A DNA stretch of 64,000 nucleotides from Ginglymostoma cirratum (GCA_024137785.1 JAHRHZ010000091.1:6667826-6731825), one strand, 5' to 3'. Counted from the first letter of the stretch, positions 1 through 62,370 are shown. Program-made: numbers and translations. Notes: a model not told the origin generated them from the sequence alone.

Positions 1-414
1 TCTACTATCATGTTTAAAGTGTCGTATTGCTGTTGATAATGGGCAGGTCCTTTATGTTGTTTGTGTTTTTGGATTTTTTCCTCTACTTATATGCAGCATC
101 CAGCTGATTAAAACAAAGGGGTCTGTTGTCGCAGCAAGGTAATTTACTTATAGAATTCAATGCTTGACAGTAACCTATTGGTCTTCCTGAGGTTTACTTC
201 CCAGCTTCAACTGAAATTGCCTACCGATGCCAATAGATGGAGCACTGGACTTGTGAGCAATGTGCCATTTTACAAATGGGGCCCGACTTAGGTTGGTTTT
301 AATAAGTGGCATTACCACTGAGCAAAAACTGTAGAAGATCAATAACAGCAGATCTTCAGATGTCTAGCATGAAACTAGTAGTCCTGGAAGGAAAAACAGC
401 ACGCCAAGAAGATA

Positions 415-588
415 ACACAGTGTGGAGCCGGAGGAATACAGCAGGCCAGGTAGCGTCAGAGGAGCAGGAAAGCTGACGTTTTGGGTCGGGACCCTTCTTC
501 AACCTGAATCATCAGCTTTCCTGCTCTCCTGATGCTTCCTGGCCTGCTGTGTTCCTCCAGCTCCAGCATCAGCAGTTCTTACTATCTC
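415..588. mobile_element. Fold-back PLE-related non-autonomous element (family A), degenerate hammerhead motif on - strand
   Basis: Left arm (cagcaggccagg..ggagcaggaaagctgacgttttgggtcgggacccttcttca) is inverted against the right arm (tcagctttcctgctc..ggcctgctgtgttcctccagctcc). Flanked by a 15-bp direct repeat cac(g/a)ccaagaagata at 400-414 and 589-603. Confidence 0.8.
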
Positions 589-1199
589 CACACCAAGAAG
601 ATAGTTCCCTGTAAACTAAAACAAAAATACAAAAGGTAACAGTTGCAATATTGTGCAAAGTCAAGTGATTTGCAAGTGTGGTATAATGGGCTAAAGCTTA
701 ATTATTGAGTTGCAAGAAAGTAATTCAACGAACATGTTAAGAAAATGACACAAACGGAAACTGCTACATTGCACAGTGCAGGCAGCTCACGCAACCAACA
801 GTAGGTGGGTGGGGATAAAATCTACATGGTCATAGTACAGGCTGTACAGTACGGTAGGGATCCTGCTAGTGAACAGATCTCAACAGGAACTGATTGCAGT
901 TGTTCCTACGAACTCTACATATTGGTATATCTGTGTGTCAGTGTACACACATATAATGGTCACGTGTTTTAGCATTAGAAGGAAGAACTTGGATATCTAT
1001 AGCACCCTTCCCAATCTCAGAACTTTCCAAAACACTCCATAACCAAAGGATTGAAATAAAGAAAATGAGGGTGGTCTACTTTTGCCTTTTTCCCTTTCAA
1101 CCAGAAGACAGCTTCTTTCAACCAGAAGAATGCACTCGCCATATGAAACTTAAATTCAGGTACAGAGCCCTTTTCCCTACCTGTGGAGAGGGCAAGACT

Positions 1200-1600
1200 G
1201 GGATTTGGGAAAGTCAGGCTTTGGGTAGGTTGGAGAATTGAGACAGACTGTGAAATGAGTGGTCAGGGAGAGACAAGAGACCAAGAACTGCAAGATCAGG
1301 ACTTGTGTGGATTGGACAGAGGGATATGTTTGGTGTAGGGCCCAGAAATTTCTACAGTATTGGAAGCAGCAACATGGTAATGAGGGAGAGGAGCAGCCAA
1401 TAAAGGGGTGAGTGAAACCCAGAAACATTACTCTGGGTAAAGAATGGAAAATGCTTGTGAATCTGTGAGTGAATCAATTAACAGGAGTACAGAGACTGAG
1501 GAGTCTCAGAGAAGAACCAAAGGGAAAATGAAAGCCTTGTATTTCTCAGCTGCTTCATAGCAGCAGTTGGTGTGAAACCATGAGCAAAGATGCTAAACTA
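1200..1600 (-). mobile_element. Degenerate L2-like LINE fragment
   Basis: Purine-rich degenerate sequence resembling the reverse complement of an L2 ORF2; no intact ORF; recognised by eye only. Confidence 0.35.
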
Positions 1601-2029
1601 CAGGAGACCAATCTTTATAATGTAAATGTACTAACATCTGCAGACACAACATTGATCAGAAAATCTCACGATCAAACCACCAACCACAGTCGGTAAACTT
1701 TGCTACTACTATTTTTGTGAGGAAAGGGTCAAATGAAAGCCAAAATCTTCCATTTGAAAAGACAAGAGTTGGAAGGGGAATGGTCATAGAGGGGAAGAGG
1801 CCCATTGTGACTGTGTTGGTCATCAAGCATCTGTATATTCTAGTTACATTTTCCAGCACTTGGCCCATTGCCTTGTATGCTAGTGTTTCAAATGATCATC
1901 TAAATATTTCTTAAATGTTGTGATGGTTCCTACCTCTACCCTCTTCCTGGCAATCACTCCCAGATACGCATCACACTTTTTCAGTAAAGAAGAATGCTTT
2001 CTTAAATCATGTCCAAACCTCCTGCTCTC

Positions 2030-4124: not shown

Positions 4125-4395
4125 CAGTTCTGATGAAAGGTTACACAGCTGAAAAAGTTAAGTCTATTTCTCTATCGACAGCCTGACTTGCTGGGTATTT
4201 CCAATAATTTGTTTTGATTTCAGATTTTCAACATCCACAGTGCAAGTATTTTTCTTTTGCAATCTCAGCCAGTCTATCTTCATTCAGCATAGTATTTACA
4301 ATTTCATAGCTCTGAAGAAGGGTCACTGCTTTTTCTCCACAGTTGCTGCCAGATTTGTTCAGATTCTTCAGCAATTTCTGTTTTTGTTTCAGATT
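4125..4395 (+). mobile_element. Two degenerate single arms of PLE-related family B
   Basis: cagttctgatgaaagg.. at ~4125 and ctgaagaagggtcactg..ttctccacagttgctgccaga..gcaatttctgtttttgtttcagattt at ~4312-4395 match the right arm of the element at 27995-28230. Confidence 0.7.
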
Positions 4396-4649
4396 TATAT
4401 TAAAACTGTTTGAGAGCACTGGGTTCACTAATTCATTGTGTTGGCAGAATAAATACAGAATTTATCTGATCAACACTTCCAGTTTAATATTTCTTTTCAA
4501 TACAATTTCCATTCAGTTAGCTTCATCTTTTGCATTAATTGTCCTATCCTGGTTACTTTTTAAGAGACCAAAAAGTGCAGATTGTGAACATATAAAACTG
4601 TTTCAATAGCATCGCTGCAAAAAAAAAGACAGGTTAACATTTTAGGTTT

Positions 4650-5750
4650 GTAAAATTATATGTTCCATCTTCTGATGGAATAAATCCAGATAGTAAAGGA
4701 AGCTAATAAAGAGGACATTAGGAGGCCCACAAAGGAATCTAAGTAGGTTGAGGGTCAGCAAGATCTAGTGAATAAAGTACAATGTGGGAATACATGAAAT
4801 TTTTTCATTTTGGTAAGATAAGAGTGGTGAGAGACTGCAGAGCCCTGGGATGCAGAGGGCTCTGGGTGTCCTCATGCATGAATCACAAGATTAGTATACA
4901 GGTACAGCAAGTAAAAATTAAGAAAGCTAACAGAATTGCAAATTTATTGCAAAGAAAATTGGATGCAAAACTTGGAAGGGTACACTTCAGTTATATAGGA
5001 CAGTGAGACTGCATTTGCAGTACTGTGCACAGTATCAGTCAGCTTATTTTAAGGAAGGATGTAAATGCATTAGAAGCAATTAAGAGAAGGTTTACCTTAA
5101 ATGTCTTATCAGGAAAGGTTACATTTGTATCTAAGATAACAAGGTGTAGAGCTGGATGAACACAACAGGCCAAGCAGCATCAAAGGAGCAGGAAGGCTGA
5201 CGTTTCAGGCCTAGACCCTTTGTATCTACTTGACTTTAGAACAGTAAGAGACAACTTGATTGAAACACGCAAGATCCCGAATGAGTGTTCTTGTGGTGCA
5301 ATGGTAGTGTCCTTGTTTCTGACCCCAGTGTCTCGATTCAAATCTCATCTGTTTCAGAAGTGAGTAATCACATCTTTGAACAGAAAATATCTATAAAACC
5401 CCAAGGAGTTTTCAGAGTGGATGTGGATAGGATATTTTTTCTTACAGAACTTGAGGTCACTGTTTAAAAATAAGGCATTGGTCATTTATAACACAGATGA
5501 GGCACAATTTTTTTTTCCCCTCCTCCAAGGGTGGACTCTGGAACTTCCTGAAAAGTTGTTGGGAACAGTGTCCTTGAATACATTTAAGGCAGAGGTGCAT
5601 AGATTCTTGTTAAATGAAGGAGGTGAAAATTTATCAGGGCTAGGTGGAAATGTGGGTTTGAGGTTACCATCAGATCCACCATGACCTTGTTGAATGGCAG
5701 AGCAGGCTTGAGAGACTACATCACCTACTCTAGCTCCTTGATTGTATGAA
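4650..5750 (+). mobile_element. CR1 LINE 3' fragment interrupted by later insertions
   Basis: Degenerate CR1 RT and 3' end (ggtacagcaagtaa..aaagctaac; gtactgtgcacagt; aggaaggatgtaaatgcattagaagca; tttaaggcagaggtgcatagattcttg; gaatggcagagcaggcttgag). Confidence 0.8.
5134..5218 (-). mobile_element. Single arm of PLE-related family A nested in CR1
   Basis: agataacaaggtgtagagctggatgaacac..ggctgacgtttcaggcctagaccc, flanked by a perfect 10-bp TSD tttgtatcta (5124-5133 and 5219-5228). Confidence 0.85.
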
Positions 5751-5899
5751 ACATCAAATGTAATAATGACCAGAATTTATTTCTTCTAATGTTGGTTGCA
5801 CAGACAAGCAAGAGGCCAGACCATTGGGCACTGTACCTGGAAGGGATACCATACAGATATGTGCACACTTATAATGTTTAAACTTTAACTGACACACAG

Positions 5900-6000
5900 G
5901 AAGGGAATGTTTGAAAAATTCAACAGGCCTAATAACATCTATGGAGACAGAAACAGAAACAGAGCTGACATTTCCAGTCTAGTAAGACTCTTCTTCAGAA
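5900..6000 (-). mobile_element. Degenerate arm of PLE-related family B with hammerhead-like motif
   Basis: Reverse complement reads ttCTGAAGAagagtcttactagactgGAAAtGTCagctc. Confidence 0.6.
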
Positions 6001-6065
6001 GGCTTAAACTTTAGCTGTTTTCCAAACACTGCAGAGCTCTTCCCAACTTGTCCATGTTCATGGTT

Positions 6066-6161
6066 AAAGACTGTGGATGCTGGAAATCAGAAACACAAAG
6101 TGAAATTTCTGGAAAGACTCAGCAGGTCTAGTACTATCTGTGGAGAGAAAACAAAGTGAAA
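6066..6161 (-). mobile_element. Left arm of family B element flanking the 28S fragment
   Basis: aaagactgtggatgctggaaatcagaaac..ctggaaagactcagcaggtctag..atctgtggagagaaaacaaagtgaa matches the left arms at 13543-13662 and 27995-28085. Confidence 0.8.
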
Positions 6162-6442
6162 GTGAACAACCCCCAAGGCTTGGTGAATTCTGCTTCACAT
6201 TGATAGCAACAGCCGACATCGAAGGAGCAAAAAGCCACTTATGCCGCCACAAGCCAGTCAGGCATCGCTGTAGTAACTTTCTGACACCTGCTGCTTAAAA
6301 CCCAAAAGGTCAGAAGGATCTGGAGGCTGTGCTTTCACGGCCTGCACTCGGACTGAAAACGAACATCAGGCTAGCTTCTGCATCATGGGAGGTTTCTGCC
6401 ACTTATGAGCTCGCCTTAAGACACCTGCGCGACGATGTGACA
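6162..6442 (-). pseudogene. 28S rRNA pseudogene fragment (large-subunit domain V, peptidyl-transferase region)
   Basis: The + strand matches the reverse complement of vertebrate 28S as recalled: gtgaacaa..gcttggtgaattctgcttcaca.tgatag.aa.agccgacatcgaagga.caaaaagc..gccgccacaagccagt..ctgacacct.ctgcttaaaacccaaaaggtcagaaggatc..gctttcacgg..actgaaaa..gggaggtttctg..tgagctcgcctta.gacacctgcg..tgaca. It has many substitutions and small deletions. Confidence 0.93.
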
Positions 6443-6490
6443 CTCTACCTTCACTCCATAGACCTCTGAAATTTTCCAGCAATTTCTTTT
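6443..6490 (+). mobile_element. Degenerate right arm of family B element flanking the 28S fragment
   Basis: ctctaccttcactccatagacctctgaaattttccagcaatttct resembles the right arm (aactc.gctttttctcca..agac..gctgag..tttccagcaatttctg), inverted relative to 6066-6161. Confidence 0.6.
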
Positions 6491-11325: not shown

Positions 11326-13542
11326 GAATGTCCCAAAAAGACACTGATGCTTAAATAAGATTATATTAATCTGGTTGCATAAAATGCTTGTTTCATTTCA
11401 CAGATGTGTTCTCTTGGGAATTGTTACAAAGAATACTAGTCTGCACTTCAAACAGAACTTAAACATGTTATAAACATTGTTGCTTAAGATTTGTTCTCAA
11501 AGAAAAGTAAGATTACATGTGTAAATGATTGTGGGGGATAAAAGGATTTATATATTTCTCCTCCCTCGTCAAATGTGGCTATTGCAACTTGTATCACCTT
11601 GGTTTAAGGTCAAAAATTAATTCACCTTTTGGATTTGAGAAGAAATATGAACTGTTGCCTTCTGGTTCTGATATATTAGATGCACAGGAGCAAGTTAGGC
11701 ATGTTTTTATGTGATAAGTTATAGATTTCCCTTTAAAACAAATTAAGAGTGCATGATAATCCAGGATTATTTATGCGTATTTTTTTTTTGTGTGGCTGAG
11801 TTTAAACAGTGTAAACTTAAGATGAAAGAACTGGGAAAAATCCATCATGTTTTTTGTTTGGGAGAATGATTTTCAGAAAGCCCACATACAGTATGAGTAA
11901 ATCTTGAAACTGAATTTGAGTTTATTCATACCTGTGTGTTTGAATCCTGGACCTGACTTATGGGGAGTGGGTCATGGGATTGCAAATAGTGAGTGACTTC
12001 GGCCTTAAACCTAACTTGAATCTGTAGTTTTACTTTGAAAATTTATTAGGATACAACAGCCATAATTTTCTATTGGTTAAAAATACAGAAATAGTTCATA
12101 ATGGCATAATACAACAAGCAGACTGAATGCCTGAGCCCAGTTGAACTTCTTCCACAAGTAGACCTGGAGAAGGTGGAGGAATATGTATACATTGTTTCAT
12201 TTGGCCAGTTAGAATTTACCAGAAATTTAGAAGCTTTAATACTCTAATATTCAAGTAAAGGAACTTAAGATCTACCTTAAGCATCTATTGCATCCAGTTT
12301 TTAAAATAGTCAAGTGTAGGTCTGAGTCTTTTTCTTTTGGTCTGCTTTTCTTTATAGGAAGTTGTGGTGATCACCAGCTCAGTTTTCACTAGCTCCATTT
12401 CCTCTTGCTAGCTGCATGATATTCACCTGCTAGGAGCTGACAAAATACACAGCCAATGTAAAAACCAATATTTTCCCAAACAAGGTGGTAGTGACCATTT
12501 GTCAGATTGTTTGCCATCAAAACCTGAAGAATGGTAACTAAATTTGATTCGTGCAGTTGTTCAAACTTCATTTTAATCGGTGGCTACCTATCAGTTACTT
12601 GTGTTTTATCTTATTTAGCAGCCTGACTGCTGACAGTTGATCTAAAGTCAGACATGGTGAGTAGACTTTGGTTAGGAGATCACAATTAACATTGCATCTG
12701 ACATTGCTATCAGAAATATTTGAACAAAGAAAATGCATTCACTTAAGTATCCCCAAAATTTCCAGGACAGTCTGTCATCCATGAGGTGGAAATGGTTATC
12801 TTTTTACTCTGTTTTTAAATATTCCTAAATTCTTGGTTGCCTCAGACCTGGGGTGATACCTTATTAAGACACATGAATAGTTCATTCTTTGCAGTTGTGG
12901 TGCAGCAAGTACAAACCCTTCTACAGCCGGAGTTGGAAATGCATATGAAAAATTGTGAAATTTAAAAGGCCTGTTAGATTTCTATTTATAGTGTATATTG
13001 GGGTCATGACTTTGGAACTATCAGCCTGTTAGAGTCTACAGTGCTTTCAAAAATTGAACATCTGGTATTGTTCGGGGAGGTTTTCATTTGTGCTGATATT
13101 TGTTAATATGAATATTGTGTTGAAGTCTACGAGAAGAGAAGGTGCAGCCCTGAATATTCGTCATTTGTTATTTATTCACTTGCTTATCTATTGTGGGATG
13201 TGGGCAGAGTTAGTTGGAGGAGGAGGGTCGATTGCCGTGACAAGAGGAAGTTTTTAACGAACATCAGGTATTGTAGGTGAATCTAGAAAACAGTCACTTT
13301 GCCAAAGTTTGAATGCATGAAATTTATGCCCACTAGAGAATATCTACTCATTAATCAGAAAAATCTCAAGGCAGAAATGTGTAAGATGCCAATGTGAGCC
13401 GAGTGCATTTTGTATGGAATCATTGGACTGATTAAAGTTTCACTGCATATTTGGTCACAGTTGTGTGGCATTTTTCTACATTTGACAACAATTGTGAATG
13501 CAAGTTTTCCTCTTTCCACAATGAAGATGCACTGACTTGTTA

Positions 13543-13662
13543 AAAACAGAACTGCGGATGCTGTGAATCAGGAACAAAAGCAGAAGTTGCTGGAAAAGCT
13601 CAGCAGGTCCGGCAGCATCTGTGAAGAAAAATCAGAGGTAATGTTTCAGGTCCGGCAACCCT
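13543..13662 (-). mobile_element. Single arm of PLE-related family B
   Basis: aaaaacagaactgcggatgctg..gctggaaaagctcagcaggtccggcagcatctgtgaagaaaaatcagaggtaatgtttcaggtccggcaaccct; truncated before the CUGA box. Confidence 0.8.
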
Positions 13663-14419
13663 ACTGTATTTATGCAACTAGTGCTGCAGTGGAACAGATA
13701 GACCTAGTATGCAGAACGTGTATTGCTGCGAACATTCCTTACAAGGAAGGACTTGTGCTCACAAGAATTAATTTTTCTTCAGCTCGCTTTTGTCCATCAT
13801 TGATGTTTGATAAATAACTTTTGTGCAGTTGTGTGAACCTGTTTCAAGGCGAGCTTTGTGGAAAATTAACAAATCAATTCAACTAATATAAAAGATTAGT
13901 TAATTAGAATAAAATTTGGAAGTAGAAAGAAATGCTTCCCACCCTAACTATCCTGGAGATAAACGCACCCAATCAGACATACAGCTTTCAACATATAGGC
14001 ATAAAAGATAAGTATCCACACTTATTCCTTTGTTGCCGTCATTTCAGTTTTGTTTGTGTACTGCAAATGTTGCTACTTCCATCCCAAGCTGTGCTTGAAG
14101 TTATCTTCTCCGTTCACATAAAATAGAAAATTTTGTTTTTTTGGATTTCTTTGTTCTTCAATTTTTTGTTTTTGTGGTCTGTTATCTTCCCTTAATTCAT
14201 TGTTTTGCAAATGTTAATTTTCTAATTAATCTGGCTATCCAGTATTAATTCTGTTTGTATCTACCAATTATGCTGTTCATACAGATTAAAGTTAGTTTCT
14301 AAGCAATGTTTAAGTGTTACTAGATATATCAGTATTCTTTAAAAGCATATAGTTGGGCAGTAATTTAAAGTTTGTCGGTATTCAGTACTTTATTTTGAAT
14401 CATATGAAAGCAAGGGTTA

Positions 14420-19311: not shown

Positions 19312-19671
19312 TTTTTTTTATTCATTCACGGGAAGAGGGCGTAGCTGGCTAGGCAGCATTTATTGCCCATCCCTAATTGCCCAGATGGCAGTTCATAGTC
19401 AACCACATTGCTGTGGGTCTGGAGTCACATGTAGGCCAGACGAGGTAAGGATGACAGTTTCCTTCCCTAAAGGACGTTAGTGAACCAGATGGGATTTTCT
19501 TGACAATCGACAATGGATTCACGGTCATCATTAGATTGTTAATTCCAGGTATTTTATTGAATTCAAATTCCGCCATCTGCCATGGCGGGATTCGAACCCA
19601 GGTCCCCAGAACATTATCTGGGTCTCTGGATTAGCAGTCCAGTGATAATACCACTAGGCCATTGCCTCCCC
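19312..19671 (-). mobile_element. Near full-length tRNA-derived SINE (elasmobranch family, name uncertain)
   Basis: The - strand has A-box-like tggcctagtgg, B-box gggttcgaatccc, a central body and tail gggcaataaatgctgcctagccagctacgccc..gtgaatgaataaaaaaaaa. Confidence 0.85.
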
Positions 19672-20752
19672 GTGTCAGTCATTGGGTCTTATTCAGATTC
19701 TGTACTAAGAGCAAGGTTGTAATTTTTTTTTCCTCAAGAACTGAACTTATGTCAATTAACACAGGACTTTTTGGTCAAGTTTTATGTTTAGGGTGAATAC
19801 CCAATTCTTCCAGTGAAATTTCACCACCTGTGGGTTCTATATCCATGGAGCAAGGACTGAATCTGTAGGATTTCAGATGGCATTATAAAATTCACTTTAC
19901 ATCATTGATCAAATGTAGCCCTTGGTTTGTGTTGCATAACTATTTTGCTCACAGACTCGTATGAATGGGGAGAACCAAATCAGATTTGTTCTGCTTCAAT
20001 GCTTTTATCAGTTAGTGACTGTATACTTGCTGGAAAACATCTTATGACAGAGGCACTGAAAGTTTGAATAATCTTGTCAGTAATAAAGAAGCTATGAATT
20101 CTTCATAGCTTTAAGTGCAACTACTGGTCCATAAATTTGCTGGGATCAGGTTTAAATTTAAAATTAATTTGTTTCAAGTTCACTACTAACACTTTCACTA
20201 AATAATGGCTTATGCTGTCTTGTACTAAGATTTACTTAACGATCTATAAGTGTAGAAATTAGAAATTTCTATAGAAGTTAGAGATTAGGTTGCTGATATG
20301 CATTGAATTGCCCAATCCTGTTGAGTAGATTTAGTTCATTGTCACAAAACAGTAATAGGCATCCAGCCTTGGTCTTTTACTGTTCCAGACTCCAAGCAGG
20401 CCATATCAATTCAAGATATTCAGCAGCTAGGAAAAGAATGCTGCAAGCCATATGTTAAACAGCCAGGACTTGCTAAGATAGCTCATAACTCTTGGTAAGA
20501 TTTAGGTTTTCTGTCAGCCCGTGTCAAGCCTTGCGGCTTTGTTTGATTTGCAGCGAAAATGATGCTCAAGGAACCCAGCAGCATTCGTTTCTTTCTAATC
20601 AGAGGATATAAAAGAGCCAAATTTTTTTCATCGCCCAACAGAAATAGTCAGGTAGAATTGACACTAAAATTGTTAAATATGTTAAGATTTCAATGTTTCC
20701 ATAATGCTATATGGTAATGATGAAGACTATCCAGACAATTGACCTAGTCTCA

Positions 20753-35459: not shown

Positions 35460-35492
35460 GTACGTGTGAAAACATCCATTCCAAATTCTATC

Positions 35493-41529: not shown

Positions 41530-42091
41530 GTGAGTAAAACTTTCCCAGTGGTCTGCTGTTCTACCTGCAGTACTGTTAACTTTCAAGCGTGAAAATAAGT
41601 CTTAGTATCATAATATCTTTTCAACTCAATATACTGGAAACTGTAAATATTGACTGGAAATACATAGGATAAAAGATTGAGACAGATCTGTCTGTCAGGT
41701 GAGAACATACATAGCTCATTTCTTGCTAGATTAAATGTGCAGCGACTTTAAGTATGCTGTCAAGACAACCACATCTGGAGCAGTATCACATTTTACTCTG
41801 GCCATATTCCCCTGTTTGCATATTCTGGCATTGATTTGTACCAGTTGATGATTGGATGCTTTGTACAAAAAAGGTCTTCTGCAGTGACTGTTTTGAATCA
41901 ACTGGATAAGCATATGAAATTATTAATTAATGTTGAGTTTGTTGATGACTGCTATGTTGAGACCAGTTGGGATTCTATTTTGGCTTTCGTACCTTGGACT
42001 AGCATGCAGTAAAATCAACTACCAAAGATTACTGCACACAGATATAATCTTGAACTTACTAAAATCCCAAAACAGGTTGTCTGTGCATGTA

Positions 42092-42305
42092 AGATAACAA
42101 ACGTGGGGCTGGATGAACACAGCAGGTCAAGCAGCATCATAGGAGCAGGAAAACTTGACGTTTCGGACCTAGACGCTTATTTCTGATGAAGGGTCTCGGC
42201 CTGAAACGTCAAATTTTCCTGCTCCTATGATGCTGCTTGACCTGCTGTGTTCATCCAGCCCCACGCTTGTTATCTCGGATTCTCCAGCATCTGCAGTACC
42301 TTTTA
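42092..42305. mobile_element. Fold-back PLE-related element (family A)
   Basis: Near-perfect ~85-bp inverted repeat (42092-42177 against 42190-42275) plus an unpaired tail to 42305. 14-bp TSD tgtctgtg(c/t)atgta at 42078-42091 and 42306-42319. Confidence 0.92.
42179..42214 (+). ncRNA. Putative minimal type I hammerhead ribozyme, sense to AEBP2
   Basis: AUUU-CUGAUGA-A-GGGU(CUCG)GCCU-GAAA-C-GUC-AAAU: both conserved boxes, GUC triplet, weak 4-bp stems I and II. Activity untested. Confidence 0.55.
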
Positions 42306-42340
42306 TGTCTGTGTATGTACTTGTGTTTCATGTAGAGACT

Positions 42341-42510
42341 CAATGGTTTTGCATCCAGATACGTTAGGTAACCTGTCATGTCGTAAAGCTTTTGTGTAAG
42401 CACTTTCCACCCTTTCAATCAATTTGAGATGACGTATTTAATGTTAACCACTCAGCTTTATTTGCTGTTATATTGTGCATGTTTTGCCTAAAATCTGTGA
42501 AATGTATCAG
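42341..42510 (+). repeat. Copy 2 of the ~170-bp direct repeat flanking exon 5
   Basis: See 41031-41207. Confidence 0.85.
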
Positions 42511-42511
42511 G

Positions 42512-43112
42512 ATTTTGACCCAGCGACAATGAAGGAATAGTGATATTTCAGAGTCATTTGGTGAGTGAGCTTCATGGTGGTGGTGTTCCCATATGTCTGC
42601 TGCCCTTGTCCTTCTCGATTGAAATGGTCGTGGGTTTGAAAGGTGCTGTCTGCAGATCTTTAAATTTCTGCAGTGCATCTTGTAGATAATAGTACACATT
42701 GCTGCGACAGAGTGTTGGTGGTGGAGGGCGTGGATGCTTGTTGATGCAGTGCCAGTCGAGCAGGCTGCTTTGTCCTGGATGGTGTCAAGCTTTTTGTGTT
42801 GTTGATGCTGGATCCATCCAGGCAAGTGGGAAGTATTCCATCACTCTCCTGACTTGTGCCTTGTAGATGGTGGACAGGCTTTGGAGAATCAAGAGTGATT
42901 TACTCGCCGCAGTATTCCTATCCTTTGACCCGCTCTTGTAGCCACTGCATTTATGTGGTGAGTCCAGTTGAGTTTCTGATCAATGGTAACTCCCAGGATG
43001 TTGACAGTAGGGGATTCAGTCATGGTCACACCATTGAATGTGATGGGGTACTGGTTAGATTGTCTCTTATTGATGATGGTCAAAGCCTGGCATTTGTGTG
43101 TTGCGAATGTTA
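42512..43112 (-). mobile_element. CR1/L2-group LINE RT 3' fragment
   Basis: ORFs: QVTFATHKCQALTIINKRQSNQYPITFNGVTMTESPTVNILGVTIDQKLNWTHHINAVATRAGQRIGILRRV and KKLDTIQDKAAC..SIHALHHQHSVAAMCTIIYKMHCRN. Confidence 0.88.
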
Positions 43113-44077
43113 CTTGGTTGATACATGCCATAATCTACAGTACATATCAATTCCCATGTTAGTTTCTGTATATGCACATTGGGTAAGGATTGGATTATAG
43201 TATGATTGCCTCAGTTCAAAGAATCATCAGAAGCTCCTGTTGAGAATTATGTGCAGTTCCATTTGAGCAAAGCAATATAGCTGCACTTGCCACTGTGTAC
43301 CTAGGTGAAGGAATAGGGAAACATTGGTCAATAAGCAAAATCCAGCTGGATAGGAAACTTGCACAATGCAGGGTAGTTTGCATTTTTCAATGTCAAATCA
43401 GGGTGTTCAGTTTAGCTAACTCCTGCGATTGTGCAGAAGTTTGTTAGTCCTCTGAATGAGATGACCTTGTCTGTCTTGTTCAGGTAGCATAGCTATGTGC
43501 AAACAATATTAAACTTGTTTCTACTAGCTGAACTTGTGATGCTTCATAAAAATCAAAAATGCAGCACAAGGCTTGGTTTGGAAAAAGGCTAAATGCCTGA
43601 GCGAAGTATAGACAGGAAGCAACCACAAAACAAGTTAAATTTCTTGAGCGGTTTCTGAGTTAACTCAGATTCCATTACTTGGAGGCATGGTGTCCTGACG
43701 CCCCTCAAGGCTAATACCCGTGTAACTTCCAGATGGTTTAAACAGCTGTCTTCTGTCATCCATTCCACAGTCTTTGAGAAGATCAATAAGCTTGACTGGT
43801 AGAGGACTGGAGGGTGCCATTTTTTGTATGAGGTATTATACCAGGGCCTAGTCAAGGTGCTCAGTGGACACTTAAAAATCTCTGGTACTATTTCAACTAA
43901 GGGCCAGAATTTAACCCTCAAATGTATATTGCGTAGGGCTTTGTGGGCATGATCAAATTGCTGCTGGGAATTTGTGCTCAATTGGCTGCTATATTTCTTG
44001 CATTTTGATAGGTACTACTTTTGAAAAGTGATTTATACAAATTTCCCAAAAGCACTACATAAATGCATACCTGTCTT

Positions 44078-44405
44078 TTAGAATTTAGAATCCCTACAGT
44101 GTGGAAACAGGACCTTCGGCCCAACAAGTCCACACCGAACCTCTCAGCATCCCACCCGGACCCCCCCCCCCCAACAACCCACCTAACCTACACCTCCGTG
44201 AACACTACGGGCAATTTAGCATGGCCAATCCACCTAACCTGCACATCTTTGGACTGTGGGAGGAAACCGGAGCACTCGGAGGAAACCCACGCAGACACTG
44301 GGACAACGTGCAAACTCCACACAGACAGACGCCCGAGGCTGGAATCAAACCCGGGTCCCTGGCGCTGTGAGGCAGCAGTGCTAACCACTGAGCCACCGTG
44401 CCGCC
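44078..44405 (-). mobile_element. Full-length HE1-type V-SINE
   Basis: The - strand has a tRNA head ggcggcacggtggctcagtggttagcactgctgcctcacagcgccagggacccgggtttgattcc, V domain gtctgtgtggagtttgcacg..gtgtctgcgtgggtttcctccgagtgctccggtttcctcccacagtccaaagatgtgcagg, and CR1-type tail ggccgaaggtcctgtttccacactgtagggattcta. Confidence 0.93.
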
Positions 44406-45820: not shown

Positions 45821-47414
45821 ATTGCTGAGGAGTTAGTGTTTAATGGTCTTCACTTTTCCTGAGTAACTGCTTATCTAACTGCAGCAAAACTCTTTGAATT
45901 GGACAATTTAAAGCATACTTTTGAGAGTTCTAGGTGTAGAGACTTGTCCATCAGAATCTTCAGTTTCCTGGACCATTCCCTCAGACTGCTGCAGAAATGA
46001 TCTTGCCCATCAGAAAATCCATGCAGCTGTGCTATATGTGACTGACTAAATTTTGAAGTCTTTTATTGCAATAAGAAACGCTTTGCCCATCTTTGAAATT
46101 TTGATATAAGCTCTGAACACTGCTTTCACTTGTTCAAAGGCAGCTGAGCATGATTGGCTGTAACTGCCTGTACGTGGACTTCATGATGAGAGTTCAGGGA
46201 TTCTGGAACTATTTTTGAGTGCCAAATTTTGCAGGAGAAGTTATCCTAATTGCCAATAATCTTTAAAAGGCACACATTGTGAGCTTGTGTGAAATGCCAC
46301 CATGATAAATTACAGATGTTCTGGTGGTGGGGTGGATGGTGGTGGTTGAACTATCAAATTAATGTGCCTAATTTCATTTTAATCTTCTGGGGAAGGACTG
46401 AAATGCCTTTGCTTGTATAGAATTTATATGACATTGGTACATCTGTAATTTTATACTCATTTAACAGCACTTCATTTTTAAATGTCAGCTCTCATAATTG
46501 AAGGTAATTTCTTTAATAAAGACAAGTGGTTCCTTCTAAACATCAGACTCTTCAAAAGAAATAGTTTGTATACTGATGTAAATCACTCCTGTGATTTCTT
46601 TATAATATAAAGATGATGTTGCCAACAACATGTATGTAACTTTGTTTTGGGAGTTTTCTTAACTTTCGAAATTGTCTAACCTTGATCCAAATATTTGGCT
46701 GAAGATTATTATCTCTGATATTTGCAAGCAGATAAGAGAATTCTGTACAAGTTTTCTTTAATGAACATGACAAAATTAAACCCAGTCAGTTAAGATTGGT
46801 GTTTCAACCCCAAGTACAGGTTTTATTATGAAGTTTATCAAAGAGGAGCTGGAACAAAGGAACCAGTAGAGGAATGCGCTCGGCAGTTACTTGCAAGCTG
46901 CAAAGGTTTTTCTTTGTTGTTATATGCACCAGCACCTCAGCATAAGTTACTCAAGATGCTAAGTTAGTGAAGAGAATGATATAGCTCCACAGTAAATTGC
47001 CATACCCTTATTTTTATAAGACTGTTTCCACATTTATTATCCTTTCATTTTGGTGGATAGGCTCATGATAGCTTTGATTCCTACAGTTGTTTGGAACACA
47101 AGCCATTGTTTTGACCTAACTGGGGTGTTCTGTATCCAATCAAAGAAATAACTGGGAGCCATCTAGGAGTGACACTTTTTAAGTCTCTATCCCTTCTGTT
47201 CTTAAAAAAAGGACCTGCAGTTGGTGGAAATCAGAAACCTTTTCTTAGCTACAGTCAGTTTTGAAGCAGGCTCACTGGACTCAACATTAACTGTTTTTGT
47301 TCTGTTTATGGATTAACCAGAAGCTCTGCTGTGGGGTCAGGGACCCAATCCATGCTTTATAGATTAGATATTACATGGAGCATGTGTTCTGACAGATGTA
47401 ATTGGGAAGGCTTG

Positions 47415-48330
47415 TAACTCAGGTTGTGGATGAGGTTGTAGACTTGCTCGCCGAGCTGGTGTGATTGCAAACGTTTCATCATTCTGCTAGGTAACATAGT
47501 CAGTGCGCTCCCAGCGAAGTGCTGGTGTTCTGTCCTGCTTGTTATTTATATGCATTGGCTTGCTGGGGTGGTTGGTATTACTTCCAGTTCTGTTTTTCAG
47601 TGGTTTGTATATCAGATCCAGTTCAATGTGTTTGTTGCACAACCCGGAATTGCGCAAAGCAGAACAAGAGCACTTATATGGAGTTTTTAAAAGGAATGGA
47701 TACCCAAAAAGCGCAATCCACCATTACCTCCATGACTGACTGGAACAAGAAGACACAACACGACCAGACACCGTACCGTACATCAGAGATGACCACAAGA
47801 TTACTCAGACCCTGCGATATCAGGGTAGCCCACAAACCAGTAACCACCCCGCAATAGCTACTGACGAATGTAAAGGATCCCATACCCACAACCAATAAGA
47901 CCATTATATATAAATAAATTACCATGCAAGGACTGTGAGAAATATTATATACGCCAAACTGGAAGAAAACTGACATTAAGGATACACAAACACCAGCAGT
48001 ACACCAAGATACTAGCAATTCTCACTGTCCTCAATACACATGGACAAAGATGGACATGAATTTGACTGGAACAACACGCACGTAATACACAAGCCAAACA
48101 GAGACATACCAGAAAATTCCTGGATGCCTAGCATTTCAACTGGAACTCTATCAACAAACACTTTGAACTGGACCCGATATACAAACGGCTTAAAAACAGA
48201 ATCGGAAGTGATGCCAACCGCCCCAGCAAACCGCGGCGCATAAATAACAAGTGGGACAGAATACCAACGTTTCACCGGAGGCGCGATGACAAAACGTCTG
48301 CAATCAAACACGCTGGCTTGGCGAGTGAGT
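47415..48330 (+). mobile_element. 5'-truncated Penelope-like retroelement (RT C-terminus and GIY-YIG endonuclease remnant) with inverted terminal copy
   Basis: Frameshifted peptides PELRKAEQEHLYGVFKRNGYPK, SEMTTRLLRPCDIRVAHKP, IY..PCKDCEKYYIRQTGRKL (GIY-YIG), HMDKDGHEFDWNNTHVI, NSINKHFELDPIY. 47415-47637 is an inverted copy of the 3' end (~48150-48330) and holds a degenerate hammerhead motif on the - strand. Confidence 0.9.
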
Positions 48331-50240: not shown

Positions 50241-51791
50241 CAACACTCACTCACTTCGTAAAGAAGCCAAATTTCTTTAAACGTCCATTACCCTTTAGAA
50301 AATTGTGACAGTATTTGGCCTCGGTTGTTTTTCTGCTGTGTTTGAAATTTGGATACAAATTGACAAAGTGCATAGCACTTTTATTTTTAAATAATTTTAG
50401 GCCATCCAAAGTCAAGAACATTGTGAAATGTTATCACTATTGTAACATAATAAAATATACAAGCTGACTTCCAGTTTCCTTTAAAAGCAGAGAGCTCAGT
50501 AAGCATATAAACTCTTAGTACTCTCCTGTTTTTAAGTGGCTTCATGGAATCTCTTGAATGCACACGTGAAGGTTGAAGTTTTTGCTTAATATTCTACCTG
50601 ACGTTTGCACCTGTGTCACTGGAGTGTAGCCTTAGTTGCATAACCTCGAGCTTAACCCCCGCCTCAATCCTATGACTGGCACGAATGCTGCCAGTTGAAC
50701 AATGTCACTGTTCTGAAAAACTGCCAGTTTCATCCATGCAGGGATGCTTTAATTGCACTGCACAGCCACGGAACCAGAAGTAGTGTTTTTGATCTGGATG
50801 ATTGGGACATACAGTGTACATCTCATGACGTTTGATTGTTAAAACCTTTACCTATTTGAACCCAGTGAAAGCAGGCTACGTTTGGAATATTTAAATCCAA
50901 TGAGGTTTGGAACTGGTCTTTTCTAATTTATTATAACTAAATTTATTATAACTAAGTTGTGTTTCTGGGCAGAGATGGTATATATGCATGTCATTCAGTC
51001 AGGTGAATCATCATTGTATAATTGATACTTAATACGTGAACAGTCTCAGCTTCTAGAGAGTAAAAATATTGGATTTGAACATTCAGATATATTTTGGGGA
51101 AAGTACAGCCTATCCTCAGTCTATGCTGAATATCATTATTTATCCATTATTGTTATTGTATCAGAGGTTTTGTAACACTTTCAATTTCAGATTTGATAGC
51201 CTAATATAGTTTCTTGAAATGAAGTTACAAGATTAGTTTGTTCCAATTTACAGACAATTGCCTCAGTTTCTGCAACTCTTAATAAAACTGCCATAAATAC
51301 ATTACAGTGATGGTAACCTCTGGGACAAAAGCATGTTTGGGACCCTTAGGGTGTTGAGGTATTATGTTGATGTTGGAGAAAGGGATTTGATTGCAAAAAT
51401 CAAAGATTTGCCCTTGGTTTGCCTTTGTCTACAAACTCTCCTCCACTTTTTACAAGATGGAGGACAGTAAATGGTGATTGAAGGATGAGGTGTGGAAGTG
51501 AGCTGCAGGTGCAGGAAAAGAAAGTTCCTTCTAAAAGAATCTTGCTCTCAAAACATTTTTTGGTTTAAAATTGATGTGGATGCTGTTTAATCTTTGTCAT
51601 TTGAATTTGACGTGTAAGCACTAACCATATGTTAATTTGGATATCTATTTCTGGGAAGCATTCCAATATAAACCAGGATTGCAAAACATAAAATGTATTT
51701 GTAGCTTTATTGAAATAGTTCATCAATGAATGTGGTTTATTTCATTGTAGAATTATATCATTTTTCCTTAGTTTTGCTTTTAATTCATTAG

Positions 51792-56614: not shown

Positions 56615-58245
56615 GTACAGTTGAGGTTTATCTTATCAACTTAGTTTATTTTTAGAGTAGTGCATGTTCTCTCATTTTTTACTTGCATGAGAAAACTACA
56701 GCAAGATTCTGGTGATGATTTATGTTTAAAGAAAGCAATTGTTAGTTCCCCTGCACCATACGTGCTGACCTGTTTCTCTGCTGAAGGAGTCATTGACTCA
56801 GATAAATGTCCTAGAGTTGCTTTATCAATGTCATGCTTTCCCCCCGCCTCCCAAACCACCACCACCACATGTGAAGTCTTAATTATGTTTTAACACTTTT
56901 TAATATTAACTGCTTTATCTTGTATCCATTTCGTTAAAACTGTGCCTGGGTTAAATGTTAGAAGGCATTATCCTTTGAGGTGTTTCATTTAATCCATTAA
57001 ATGCAAACATCACTGAAAATAATGGTAATTTCCTATTTTATGATAGGTAAAGGACAGAAGGGTTGCCTGTTCGATAATGAGGGTTATTGGCTGAATCTTT
57101 ATTTAAGTTGCTGCATGTTGAGGCATTGCCCTTTTGTCAAATTGGCATTGTTGTGGTTTAAATTTTTCCTAATATTGGAAGGTAACTATTTGCATTGAAG
57201 TATTTTTGTTTGGTTAGGAGTCCAGGTATGGAAAGTTGCTATGATTTCTGAAATGTCCATATTCTCTAGTGAAAGGGACTTCAACTTTAGTCCTAACGTA
57301 AGTCAACTGGTGCCCCATCATCCAGGAAAAGTATAATTAAGGAGACCCCGAAGAAATCATGATCTGAGACTTTTTCTACTCCTTTTTCACATTGTTAATT
57401 TCCAATACTCAAGTTGCTTTTACTTGCTACAATATTTGGCCACACTCAAACACCCTCAATCACCCTGTTCACATCTTGATCCACTGTTTTGCAGTTCCTG
57501 AGTGCAGTGCTCACTCGCGCTTTCCCACTAGGTCATTTCAGCAAACACTGTTCTTCTCCCTTGAAATAGCCATCATAGCACCCTGCCACTGACTTTGGAA
57601 AAGTGCACTGTGATCCTGTTTCAGCTTTATTTCTGCATCCTCGTTGGCAATGCATCTGCCTAAGCCTGTTCCCAGTGTCACCATCAGCTATCATTTCATT
57701 TCCAAATTAGCAAATCAGTGATGATTGCAATTTTTTGCCACCTACGAACAATCAAACTATGACTTTTTGAAAAGGTCTTTTGGCTGGCTAAAATTAAATT
57801 TAAGTTGATTTTAGTCCAGTTTTGTTTTTGGTTGAGAAAATGGCACCTACTTGAGTATATTTTAAGTTGACATTCTGTGGCAGGATTTGCTTTTTTTTCT
57901 TCCAGCTTCCATTTTCCTTCTAGTTATTGGTTAGCTATAGATTTTGGAGATTTCATTTATAAAGCTGCGATTGATCACAGTTTTGTTTTTGAAACACTGG
58001 TATGCGAAATTTGTCCGAACTTTGATTCGGATGGTGGGCATGCATTAGGGCGTGTTGAATTGCATTTGGAATAGGAAAGAGCTGCTTGTCATAATGTGAC
58101 TTTAAGTTTCTTGATCTGTTATTGTATTTGTGTTTTTAAAGCCATCCGCATGCACTTTGCTGAAGGAAGAATTGATAATGTAGGAAAGTGTTTCTTTTCT
58201 TGTTCAAGGCACTTGGTACAAAATGCCACTTAACCAGGTACCACG

Positions 58246-58555
58246 TAGAAATATAGAAGCCCTGCAGTGTGGAAGCAGGCCAGTTGGCCTGTCGAGTCTA
58301 CACTACCCTCCGAAGAGCATTTACCCACCACCATATAATCCTGCATTTTCCATGGCTAATCCACCCTGCCTGCACGTCCCTGGACTCTGCGGGTAATTTA
58401 GTATGGTCAATCCACCTAATCAACACATCTTTGACTGTGGGAGGAAAGCGGAGCACTCGGAGGAGACCCACGCAGTCACAGGGAGGATGTGCAAACTCCA
58501 CAAAGACAATCGCCTGAAGTGGAATTGAACACGGGTCCCTGGCACTGTGAGGCAG
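58246..58555 (-). mobile_element. HE1-type V-SINE, head slightly truncated
   Basis: Aligns with 44078-44405 (gactgtgggaggaaa.cggagcactcggagga.acccacgcag; gtgcaaactccaca; gggtccctggc.ctgtgaggcag). Confidence 0.9.
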
Positions 58556-59584: not shown

Positions 59585-60760
59585 ATAAGATTGTAACTTG
59601 TAGGAATTGAAGTAGGTAATTCAGTCCATCTAGCCTGCTATGCCATTGGTGACATTGTGGCTGGTCTGATCATCCTTATCTGATAATTGCTCTGCTTTTT
59701 TTTAAAAAGAGTCTTTGATTCCTTACCTGATTAAAATCTGTCTGTCTCAGCCTCAAATATACTTAACGATCCAGCCGTGACAGTCCTCTGTGGTAAAGAA
59801 TTCCGCAGATTTAATATCCCCTCTGAACAAATTTCTCCTCTTCACTGAGATATGAGACTTTGAAATAAAGGACAGCATTCCATTTGCTTTCCCTATTACG
59901 TGGGACTATCACTAACTAGGATGCTAGATTTATGACTCATGGACGAAGATTTCCAGATCGCTCTTCCATAACTTTCTGCAGTCTCCCTCCATTTAAATAA
60001 TATTCAGCTGCTGTATTCTTCCTGCCCAAGTGCATAATTTCTCTCCATGTTGTAAATTTTCCCACGTTGTATTCCATCTGTTGAGTATTTTGTCTGCTTA
60101 CTTAATCTGTGTATATGCCTCTGCCAAGTATCATCCTTACCACTTGCCTTTCCACTTATTGTTGTCCACAAACTTGTCTATAGTGCATTCACTTTTCTCA
60201 TCTAAACCATTCATATGTAGTGTAAACAACTGCAGCCCCAGTTCTTGATCATTGTGCTGTGCCATTAGTTACAAGTTGCCAGCCTGAAAATTACCCCTTA
60301 TCCCAATTCTGTTAGCCAATACTCTCTCCATGCAAATATGCTACCTCCAACACCATTGGTTCTTATCTTAAATAGCCCAATGTATGCTACCTTATCAAAC
60401 ATCTTCTGAAAATCCAAATGTATTGCATTCATCGCTGTTCCATTCCCTATCCTGCTTGTTACCTCCTCTAAAGAATTGTAGTAAATCTCAGGCATAGTTT
60501 TCCCTTCATAAATCCATGCTGACGCTGCTTAATCATATATTATGTCTAAATGTTCTGCTATTACATCTTTTATTATAGACTAACATATTCCTAGTAACAG
60601 CTGTTAAGCTAACTTGCATATAGCTACTTGGTATTTTTTGTCTCCTTCCCTTTTCAAATAAAGGTGTTCCATTGGCAGTTTTCCATTTCTCTGGCAATTC
60701 TCCAAACCTTAAATATTCTTGGGAGATTACTACCAAATGCATCTGCTATCTCTGTATGCT
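59585..60760 (-). mobile_element. CR1 LINE fragments (RT core and 3' end, internally deleted)
   Basis: ORFs EEVTSRIGNGTAMNAIHLDFQKMFDKV and LPEKWKTANGTPLFEKGRRQK..SYMQVSLT; reverse 3' tail cataaga..taggaattgaagtagg. Confidence 0.88.
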
Positions 60761-61611
60761 ATCATTTTCATGGTCCTATTGTAAAGAAGACAAAGGGCTA
60801 ATTATGCTTTATTTGTACAGGCAACAAAAAGACATGCTGTGATGAATCTTGTGTGGTTTTGCAATGGCTTAGCATTTCGGAGTAAAGAGACTGAGTGAGA
60901 AATGGATCATCATGTAAGAGACTCGCAGCCAGGCAACATTTGGTCTGATACTGAAGGCTGAGTTGTAGACGGATGAGCCTGTAATTATTGTGCAAGTTGT
61001 TGGATAACAGGTGAAAAGAATAGTTAAAATGCTGGCATAATTTAATGCCTGCAAGAGGTAAATGAGCATATTTTGGAATTGCTAGTGTGTTTCCTTTGTA
61101 GCTGACTTTTGGGGTGAATACTGCTATGGAAGGAGCCCAAAGATAGAACTAGAGATTGTGACTGTATGACAAAACCTCAATTCATGTGTCAGTGGGTTGC
61201 AAAGTGTTAGTGTTGATGACATGTCCTGCTTGTCAGTGGAGTGGTTATGACTGTAATCGGTTCATCAATCTTACACAGTCTGAAGTGAGCAGCAATACTT
61301 GTGTGCCAGCAAATAAGGAAAGAAAGGAAAAATCAGATGCGGACTGAAACAAAACTGAAAATATGGGTTTTGGCAGAGTAGCAGATTAGACTGATTGTTC
61401 ATTGATGCTAACATTTCTTGATCAAGTGGTTTCCTGTGAAACCAAATCCCTCACCAAGCCTGTAGACATGACAAAGTAAACAATCAATTACACACTGTTC
61501 TTTTGAATACTTGACCTGATCCAGAGTGGTCTGTATTTCATTCTGGCAATGTTTAGTTTTATTGTTCTAATTTATTAGAAAAATGTATGTCCTGCTAGAT
61601 CAGTACTGGTA

Positions 61612-61836
61612 TCTAAGGTTTTTGGAGTAGATTTGTAGCTTGGGTTGTGGGTGTTGAGGTTGGTTGGCTCGCCGAACTGATTTGTTGTTCCGCAGACGTT
61701 TCATTACCATGCTGGGTAACATCATCAGTGCAGCCTCCAATGAAGCTTCATCAGTGCAGCCTCCGATAATGTTACCCAGCAGGGTAATGAAACGTCTGCG
61801 GAACAGCAAATCAGCTCAGTGAGCCAACCTACCTCA
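61612..61836. mobile_element. Fold-back Penelope terminal-repeat element (family C, related to 47415-48330)
   Basis: Inverted arms ~61655-61725 and ~61765-61837, with an internal direct repeat tcatcagtgcagcctcc (61722-61738, 61748-61764). Perfect 13-bp TSD atcagtactggta at 61599-61611 and 61837-61849. Confidence 0.92.
61690..61733 (-). ncRNA. Putative intact minimal type I hammerhead ribozyme, antisense to AEBP2
   Basis: The - strand RNA reads CUGCA-CUGAUGA-U-GUUACC(CAGCAU)GGUAAU-GAAA-C-GUC-UGCGG: 5-bp stem I, 6-bp stem II, palindromic ACGU in place of stem III. Predicted cut between 61695 and 61694. Confidence 0.75.
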
Positions 61837-61974
61837 ATCAGTACTGGTAATTTTGAAACACCACAGTTCATGCGTTTTAGTCTTGGTCTTCCTCGTCAAA
61901 CTAAACTGCTAGGTAATGTGATGGGCGGTCTGTGCCTGCTATCTCTAATCTAGGACTTTTGTTCTGGGAACATA

Positions 61975-62370
61975 AACAGTTTTGATTACTAGGCTAATGA
62001 TCCAGAGACTGAAGTTCAAATCCTGCTACGGCTGCTGAGAAATTTAAATTCAGTACAATAAACCTGCACAAAAAAAAACAATATTGGTATTTTGAGGTAA
62101 CAAGGTGTAGAGCTGGATGAACATAACAGGCCCAGCAGCATCAGAGGAGCAGGAAGGCTGACGTTTCGGGCCTAGACCCTTCTTCTGAAATACCAGTATC
62201 GGTATTTTGATGATTGTAAAACTGCTAGATTGCTATTAAAGTTCAGGTTTATTGATATCCTTCAGGGAAGGCAATCTTTTCTTACCTGAGCTAACCTCCA
62301 TGTGATCCCAGAGCCGTACAATGTGGATGCCTTGTCACTACCCTCTGCAATTGTCTAACATAGTGCGTCC
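61975..62370 (+). mobile_element. tRNA-derived SINE (same family as 19312-19671) interrupted by a family A arm
   Basis: taatgatccagaga..gttcaaatcc..aatttaaattca; resumes after 62210 with tccttcagggaaggcaatct..catgtgatcccagagcc..caatgtgg. Confidence 0.75.
62096..62196 (-). mobile_element. Single arm of PLE-related family A nested in a SINE
   Basis: ggtaacaaggtgtagagctggatgaac..ggctgacgtttcgggcctagacccttcttc; 14-bp TSD tat(t/c)ggtattttga at 62082-62095 and 62197-62210. Confidence 0.88.

Follow-up and report, generated by a model that had tools for sequence, protein, structure and literature searches.

What left the short, often inverted repeats with hammerhead ribozyme motifs in and around the AEBP2 gene of the shark Ginglymostoma cirratum? 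The window is the whole stretch of DNA that was analysed, 64,000 nucleotides (nt) in length (JAHRHZ010000091.1:6667826-6731825), and all positions follow its numbering. An initial annotation had described three families (A, B and C) of ribozyme-processed retroelements without an open reading frame (ORF), related to Penelope-like elements (PLEs) and resembling retrozymes or miniature inverted-repeat transposable elements (MITEs). We find that the copies are ordinary PLE debris of the kind described from 2013 to 2024, with the ribozyme motif as a known feature. The account that we favour, with moderate confidence, is that they are 15 dead, short products of target-primed reverse transcription by PLEs of two lineages. 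Only the uniform inner ends of the arms and a captured piece of 28S rRNA deserve a further look.

The copies have the features of endonuclease-containing (EN+) PLEs. A tail is present on one arm only in 7/7 two-armed insertions. A terminal copy is inverted. Target-site duplications (TSDs) flank 6 of the 15 insertions. Family C also contains the remnant of an ORF, with a GIY-YIG endonuclease and the thumb region of a reverse transcriptase (RT). Its pseudo-long terminal repeat (pLTR) carries a hammerhead that overlaps the ORF start.

Insertions in the window

Self-comparison and profile searches of the whole window recovered 15 insertions with 22 arms. Family A has 6 loci with 8 arms, family B has 7 loci with 10 arms, and family C has 2 loci with 4 arms. 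Seven insertions are two-armed, with the arms head to head, where four inverted-arm hairpins had been counted before. The other eight are single arms, and three of these have their own TSD. In the six two-armed copies that align over more than a few bases, the arms are 78-93% complementary. Most copies are decayed, and they are very short. Self-BLAST linked the A copies at E values of 1e-16 to 1e-64 and several B copies at 2e-3 to 6e-10. The nhmmer profiles were built from the same arms, and their matches are partly by construction; independent support comes from the self-BLAST and from a reversed-window control of the profiles (best E value, 4.4). All 14 loci of the initial annotation are real and lie about where it had placed them. 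It had missed one B insertion, at 47201-47300. The features, with strand in brackets, are as follows.

400-414 and 589-603, TSD of the insertion at 415-588.
415-588, A, two-armed, head to head; left arm about 415-501 (-), right arm about 503-588 (+), internally deleted and with tail.
4125-4241 (+), B, single arm with tail; hammerhead decayed, TSD not found.
4308-4396 (+), B, single arm; 3' half of stem II and stem III deleted, TSD not found.
5134-5218 (-), A, single arm without tail; begins at stem II; exact 10-bp TSD at 5124-5133 and 5219-5228.
5892-6003 (-), B, single arm without tail; 14-bp TSD at 5878-5891 and 6004-6017.
6060-6163 (-), B, left arm with tail; begins 1-5 nt upstream of the predicted scissile bond and joins the 28S piece.
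6164-6435 (-), decayed captured 28S rRNA fragment in the same sense as the left arm; right boundary accurate to about 10 nt.
6435-6490 (+), B, right arm without tail; begins about 5 nt upstream of the predicted scissile bond.
13541-13665 (-), B, single arm with tail; TSD not found.
20750-20873 (-), A, single arm with tail; begins at stem II, TSD not found.
27995-28230, B, two-armed; left arm 27995-28119 (-) with tail, right arm 28128-28230 (+) without.
35491-35537 (-), A, tail-end fragment only, without hammerhead.
42078-42091 and 42306-42319, 14-bp TSD of the insertion at 42092-42305.
42092-42305, A, two-armed; arms 93% complementary, tail on the right arm and none on the left.
42179-42214 (+), intact minimal type I hammerhead; stem II of 4 bp, stem I of 4 bp; hidden in the arm hairpin in a fold of the whole insertion.
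47201-47300, B, asymmetric two-armed; tail end only (-) and hammerhead end only (+), marginal 7-bp TSD.
47400-47637 (-), C, inverted pLTR arm with tail; last PLE ORF codons and a hammerhead with one core change; left boundary between 47400 and 47415.
47638-48200 (+), PLE ORF remnant, frameshifted and with stops; RT thumb region and GIY-YIG endonuclease.
48146-48330 (+), C, direct pLTR arm without tail; 5' half of the hammerhead deleted.
61599-61611 and 61837-61849, exact 13-bp TSD of the insertion at 61612-61836.
61612-61836, C, two-armed; turns at a short palindrome (61740-61749), tail on the left arm.
61689-61733 (-), intact minimal type I hammerhead; stem II of 6 bp, stem I of 5 bp; overlaps the first PLE ORF codons (61722 downwards).
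62096-62200 (-), A, single arm without tail; arm 62096-62188, 10-bp TSD at 62086-62095 and 62201-62210.

Below, insertions are named by their approximate starts. The TSDs were found at 410, 5134, 5900, 42092, 61612 and 62096. They are 10-15 bp long with 0-1 mismatch (p<=0.003 against 1500 random site pairs). The TSD of 62096 is an exact 10-mer read inside a best match of 23 nt with 4 mismatches. The length range given before is confirmed; the count of copies with a TSD rises from five to six. The insertion at 47204 has a marginal 7-mer (p 0.047, or p 0.15 with a wider search). The wider search of the nine remaining insertions gave nothing significant, and eight are without any TSD.

Inverted arms in seven insertions and TSDs in six are also what MITE-like DNA transposons with terminal inverted repeats would leave. 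This origin has next to no probability. The outer ends of the arms are unequal in 7/7 two-armed copies, more than half of the insertions are single arms (three with a TSD of their own), TSD length varies from 10 to 15 bp, and the C arms are coding ends of a PLE.

Two of the TSD-flanked copies show small rearrangements. At the inner end of the 62096 A copy, about 12 nt (62189-62200) are an inverted copy of the left flank, which suggests that target DNA briefly served as the template. In the loop of the C hairpin, a 16-nt micro-inversion (61751-61766) lies between short inverted repeats, and the right-arm hammerhead is destroyed.

Outer and inner ends

The ends were numbered from the first core base, and TSDs were used where present. 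Outer ends of the A arms lie near +90 in four arms and near +125-130 in four. Those of the B arms lie near +91-103 or +117-121, apart from the shorter right arm of 47204. The C left arms are about 35-40 nt longer than the right arms. There are two classes of outer end, separated by about 35 nt, and the difference is the PLE tail. If each arm chose freely, a one-sided tail in all seven two-armed insertions, of which 47204 is a weak case, would have a chance of 1 in 128. At 47415 the tail arm is without the ORF and the ORF arm is without the tail. Each arm holds sequence absent from the other, and therefore neither was copied from the other.

The inner ends of the A arms lie at +2, +7, +8, +82, +7, 0, 0 and +18, and those of the B arms at -4, -1, +29, +5, -4, -2, -3, +26, +94 and -4. 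Thirteen of the 18 fall within the 14 nt from -5 to +8, a result reached in 0/200000 simulations under four uniform-truncation nulls. Random breakpoints, which would have made A and B simple truncated ends, are not what is seen. The predicted cut follows +28 in A and +30 in B. At most 1/18 of the A/B arms starts within 3 nt of it, no A/B 3' end lies at the scissile bond, and no copies are permuted. The inner ends are therefore fixed, but not by the ribozyme, and the copies are not ribozyme-processed in the sense first proposed. Stalling of RT before stem II was rejected as an explanation, as most inner ends lie past stem II. One initiator-like pentamer at -5, which is also the 5' strand of stem I, opens three of the B arms.

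The ends could instead be set at the DNA level. The cDNA would stall or fold back at the near-palindromic start of the hammerhead and prime its own second arm; template length would then be irrelevant. Such self-priming was proposed in a passage of PMC3846280. In support, the turning point of 61612 is a palindrome that lies 17 nt upstream of the core, the start of the A/B core comes close to a palindrome, and one arm is nested in the other at 42092 and 27995. We think this improbable as a general account. Seven of the eight single A/B arms end at the same inner site without a fold-back, and the arms are not nested at 47415 and 410. Nor does self-copying alone account for a second arm that ends at the other RT start site. 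For 42092, 27995 and 61612 taken singly, self-priming is possible.

A and B are one lineage

The initial annotation had treated A, B and C as differing in sequence around one common motif. The A and B consensuses align over about 120 nt, from core to tail, with a score of 70 against a maximum of 31 in 1000 shuffles. Their profiles cross-match at E values down to 6e-7. Their stems II differ by one added pair and by loop changes. On these alignments, A and B are best taken as one lineage, and there are two PLE lineages in all (A/B and C), not three. The three independent stems II on which the earlier argument drew are therefore reduced to two.

C is a truncated coding PLE

Three-frame translation of 47415-48330 gave a broken thumb region and a GIY-YIG motif between the arms. 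The RT core has been truncated away. A 61-amino-acid (aa) GIY-YIG piece had a GIY-YIG cluster as its top atlas match (score 0.95; Pfam share only 20%). The same piece gave 21 matches in a HMMER protein search. Thirteen of these were scanned; GIY-YIG was found in 6, and RVT_1 also in 2 of those. One of the 21 (P0034), an unrelated protein of repetitive sequence, was excluded from the tblastn search. PLE proteins cover 47605-48302 by tblastn, with P0025 at E values of 1e-14 and 1e-22. P0025 also aligns with the inverted arm, from the endonuclease straight through the C hammerhead. Of the 27 long RT-type relatives, 26 match the 47415-48330 element; the relatives carry RVT_1 and GIY-YIG. A direct Pfam scan of six ORF pieces of this element found nothing, and a word-based protein search with the GIY-YIG piece gave 5 candidates, none significant. 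The tblastn search found no further PLE ORF piece in the window. No motif of an extra Zn-finger linker between RT and endonuclease was seen by eye in C.

The 61612 arm holds the other end of the ORF. The first 32 residues of P0050, an 824-aa RT and GIY-YIG protein named from Dicrocoelium, align with 61722-61627 (50%, E value 3e-4). The score of 85 exceeds a shuffle maximum of 57 (0/5000 shuffles). Because this N terminus matches the arm, the C arm can be read as an ordinary pLTR, with the hammerhead and the first ORF codons. Judged by protein homology, family C is a truncated coding EN+ PLE, and the description of it as ORF-less falls. The proposal that the copies were mobilised by PLE RT/GIY-YIG is supported for C by the same homology; for A and B it is suggested by the tail, the TSDs and the head-to-head arms.

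All named full-length relatives of the C ORF (P0046-P0071) come from parasitic flatworms (Dicrocoelium, Spirometra and Sparganum). This may only reflect which genomes hold unmasked PLE ORFs.

A captured piece of 28S rRNA

The B arms at 6066 and 6443 had been listed as a simple pair. Between them lie about 270 nt of 28S rRNA (6164-6435, -), matched by RF02543 with 111.6 bits and an E value of 8.4e-26. The piece is in sense with the left arm and 5' of it. Both junctions lie in hammerhead stem III, 1-5 nt upstream of the predicted cut, and the left one has a 2-nt microhomology. Because of these positions and the microhomology, we lean towards template switching as the likelier cause. Ligation of a cleaved 5'-OH end was also considered; given 20% decay it is possible, but less likely than template switching. 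The geometry of the arms suggests that the whole insertion was a single event; a TSD was not found.

Capture of unrelated DNA between pLTRs is known (PMC3846280, in part). Sense chimeras of 28S rRNA and LINE-1 of this size are also known, with a median of 269 nt and 83% in sense in the part of PMC13174262 that describes them. Those chimeras share with this one a 28S piece of about 270 nt, in sense and 5' of the retroelement. They differ in that the partner here is a PLE-type arm pair and the junctions lie in stem III. The piece lies about 300 nt upstream of the GC-rich first-exon region of AEBP2.

The hammerhead motif

The copies carry the minimal type I hammerhead of PLEs, as first annotated. 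The consensus motif fits that published for metazoan PLEs in the relevant passages of PMC4209133. At the level of single copies it is rarely perfect. A descriptor scan found an exact hammerhead in 2/22 arms (42183, +; 61728, -) and four matches when one core mismatch was allowed. Reversed controls gave no matches at zero or one mismatch, and 3 and 7 at two changes. No B arm passes the descriptor, even with two mismatches. The Rfam hammerhead models gave no match in the whole window or in two focused scans. Rfam microRNA matches were hairpin noise with scores below gathering and were set aside.

When the motif is folded alone, stem II has a probability of 0.95-0.99 in C and about 0.1 in A. Within the whole insertion it is 0.0 in both, because the arms pair with each other, and both exact hammerheads are sequestered in hairpins. 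The two hammerheads of one fold-back lie on opposite strands and therefore cannot form a dimer in cis, in one RNA.

Selection on cleavage had been argued from the differing stems II around a fixed core. Slid controls support the stem II register (85.5% paired against 11-61%). In 12 A/B arms, the covariation score of stem II was reached by 79/500 shuffles, with a two-sided change in one pair; stem I is out of register in the alignment, and the result concerns stem II only. Changes in the core against the body number 2/49 against 38/391 in A (p 0.29) and 9/62 against 123/538 in B (p 0.15). Pooled, they number 11/111 against 161/929 (p 0.057), so the core is somewhat better kept, not significantly. 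This is a trend in favour of the earlier argument, confounded by subfamily differences and CpG content. Neither measure shows selection on cleavage.

These results bear on a retrozyme-type origin, in which monomers are cut by dimeric hammerheads, circularised and reinserted. In its favour, the motif agrees with the minimal type I consensus, and the two arms that flank the 28S piece begin no more than about 5 nt from the scissile bond. Non-LTR retrozymes are also found in a chondrichthyan, with pLTRs as their source (bioRxiv 10.64898/2026.07.22.740005, in part). We regard this origin as very unlikely, and for these copies it is already largely refuted. No tandem array of any arm is present in the window. 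The arms at 4125 and 4308 are same-strand neighbours, and their upstream sequences do not match. The arm ends are off the cleavage site as described above, few hammerheads are intact, stem II does not form inside the hairpins, and its covariation is matched by shuffles. Minimal PLE hammerheads are also poor cleavers (PMC4209133), and cleavage is dispensable for insertion in vitro (PMC11167929), according to the sections cited.

Proposed mechanism

In the account that we favour, each insertion would begin with a PLE RNA that has a minimal hammerhead where the pLTR meets the ORF, as in C and presumably in A/B. For A/B this RNA would be the transcript of a coding PLE, with its start just upstream of the hammerhead. 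The PLE protein would nick the target with a stagger of 10-15 nt, the length of the observed TSDs. Two internal sites, one about 90 nt and the other about 125 nt downstream of the core, would then serve as alternative starts of reverse transcription. The two end classes are observed; initiation there is suggested by experiments on an anole PLE. Both target strands would be primed, one per site. The cDNAs would meet head to head, with the tail on one arm. The hammerhead would be copied uncleaved, as a passenger. In C the template would continue upstream into the ORF, giving ordinary 5' truncation. In A/B the cDNA nearly always ends between -5 and +8, probably because the RT runs off the 5' end of the RNA and a few bases disappear when the ends are joined. 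The initiator-like pentamer of three B arms speaks for such an RNA start, as does the internal promoter of Drosophila virilis Penelope, which is like that of long interspersed elements (LINEs) according to the part of PMC2377424 cited here.

The anole work supports several of these steps, as far as the passages of PMC11167929 go. The 30-40-nt tail is tied there to two internal RT start sites. Both strands are extended, the minimal template is +20..+172, and cleavage is not needed. The ORF of the anole element begins at stem II. Twin priming is the simplest account of the one-sided tails because the anole protein cuts and extends both strands. A coding transcript is favoured over an ORF-less master on two grounds. 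The anole protein requires RNA downstream of the start sites, and the short copies do not have it. In several copies, moreover, the A arm can be read as an open frame that begins at the core ATG and reaches the tail end (chance about 1 in 8). The short copies, without that downstream sequence, should not move again.

Another possibility is that A/B is a non-autonomous, SINE-like (short interspersed element-like) PLE derivative. Its master RNA would have no ORF, begin about 5 nt upstream of the core, keep the downstream protein-binding segment and be mobilised in trans by a PLE protein; C would stay an ordinary truncated PLE. We consider this rather unlikely, yet the strongest of the alternatives. 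The A/B inner ends are fixed. A/B makes up 13/15 insertions, none with ORF sequence, and a coding parent was not found. Non-autonomous PLEs exist (Chlamys MRC1; PMC8557442), and pLTRs act in trans (PMC3846280), as parts of these papers report. A search with the A-arm peptide gave 20 matches, all of which we read as host gene models with an exonised repeat. These come from other genome data; in 11/20 the A repeat is entered at one and the same pair of codons, and two run through fold-backs with their turn at the core. The common entry point may be a splice artefact. The parent searches were weak, with a short query, 932 candidates and repeats that are usually masked in annotations. The A-arm open frame is what an ORF start should show, and the short copies end at the RT start sites and cannot be masters if the anole rules hold.

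A bolder form of this idea is doubtful. It would make A/B a long-lived and very abundant PLE-dependent non-autonomous "SINE" of sharks, with a unit of about 130 nt, an RNA start at an initiator that is also stem I, twin priming from the two RT start sites, which would account for head-to-head arms with the tail on one side, and a ribozyme centre that is a preferred point of joining to cellular RNAs, 28S fragments among them.

Several points count against a coding PLE transcript copied by twin priming. RT or GIY-YIG was found in 0/20 of the A-peptide matches. The A/B peptide was found in 0/48 proteins of the PLE search (best score, 43). An atlas search with the A peptide was uninformative (best score, 0.84). 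No A/B arm (0/18) extends more than about 5 nt upstream of the core. In D. virilis, Penelope RNA starts farther out than -5, namely 46 nt upstream of an intron whose end lies at the hammerhead (PMC4209133 and PMC2377424, in part). Fold-back self-priming explains the nested arms at 42092 and 27995 equally well, and turning points here are palindromic or nearly so, as a passage of PMC3846280 argued. The inner ends are read against a consensus from the same copies, 9/15 insertions are without a secure TSD to fix their ends, and the evidence comes from one window.

A 23-nt A pattern had 0 matches in bacterial and archaeal genome contigs. The A arm is often exonised in predicted host proteins (P0005-P0024), including a named isoform of Stegostoma tigrinum. 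The B arms contain pyrimidine-rich, acceptor-like sites.

Comparison with known elements

The nearest known systems are compared here on the sections of each source that describe them. EN+ PLEs (PMC3846280, PMC8557442) share with these copies head-to-head inverted pLTRs, a tail at one end, TSDs of about 10 bp, a pLTR with the first ORF codons, a palindrome at the inverted junction, solo pLTRs, and unrelated DNA captured between pLTRs. The A/B copies here differ: all measure about 90-130 nt, their inner ends are clustered, and a coding parent was not found. TSDs here also reach 13-15 bp.

The minimal type I hammerheads of metazoan PLEs (PMC4209133) share the core consensus, the extra nucleotide before stem II, the G-C closing pair and a two-base palindromic stem III. 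They are mostly solo, with some pairs 100-700 bp apart on opposite strands, as here. Stem I in A differs, with only 2-4 bp. Thousands of solo and opposite-strand minimal hammerheads were already reported there as probable truncated PLEs. No shark family was found in the searchable supplement text (file 2) of that paper.

PAc, a Poseidon element of Anolis (PMC11167929), shares the ORF start inside the hammerhead (observed here for C), two outer-end classes a tail apart, and the copying of an uncleaved hammerhead. Its outer ends lie 111-118 nt into the ORF, against about +90 and +125 from the core here, and two-strand priming is not linked to inverted arms in those passages.

Non-LTR retrozymes (PMC7229834; bioRxiv 10.64898/2026.07.22.740005) share the type I hammerhead, the pLTR ancestry and, with A/B, the lack of an ORF. 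They differ in their tandem units and canonical loop-loop hammerheads, neither of which occurs here; the ends here are off the cleavage site, and the copies are intronic. The 2026 preprint includes one chondrichthyan. PLEs have been reported in whale shark introns (bioRxiv 10.1101/443036, in part). A literature search that covered few subscription papers found no description of these shark families or of twin priming of PLE arms.

With copies of this length in the thousands, a shark genome would serve as a natural data set, free of bench work, on PLE RT start and stop sites. It would bear on twin priming against self-priming of inverted pLTRs, an open question in the passage of PMC3846280 on that subject. 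It would also show whether cleavage of the hammerhead ever precedes insertion. Should A/B turn out to lack a coding parent, it would count as a non-autonomous PLE family of vertebrates other than a tandem retrozyme.

The AEBP2 locus and other repeats

The PLE end-copies sit within and around AEBP2, which lies on the + strand of the window. A frame at 28949-29335 matches AEBP2 chains (E value 2e-37). Motif scans place further exons near 35.35, 38.15, 41.4 and 56.5 kb, and exon 1 was placed by eye at about 6.8-7.2 kb. The single arms past the AEBP2 start (13541, 20750, 35491 and 62096) all have the hammerhead strand antisense to the gene. This makes 3/3 single intronic arms, or 4/4 if 62096 lies within the gene, a sample too small to judge. 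The intronic hairpins, of up to 87 bp at 93%, could be candidate editing or small-RNA substrates in AEBP2 pre-mRNA.

A local duplication of 179 nt (41024-41200 and 42334-42506; 78% identical, 1.3 kb apart) flanks an AEBP2 exon. Its second copy begins just past the 42092 insertion. Open frames at 42415-43200 (-) resemble the 3' end of a CR1/L2-type LINE. Three copies of one SINE-like repeat, similar to the elasmobranch V-SINE/HE1, lie at 27412-27625, 44077-44400 and 58245-58555. ARAGORN predicted a tRNA-Ser(GCT) at 19578-19665 (-), which may be the head of a tRNA-derived SINE. Three small tandem repeats (22239-22290, 32217-32255 and 50925-50955) are unrelated to the arms.

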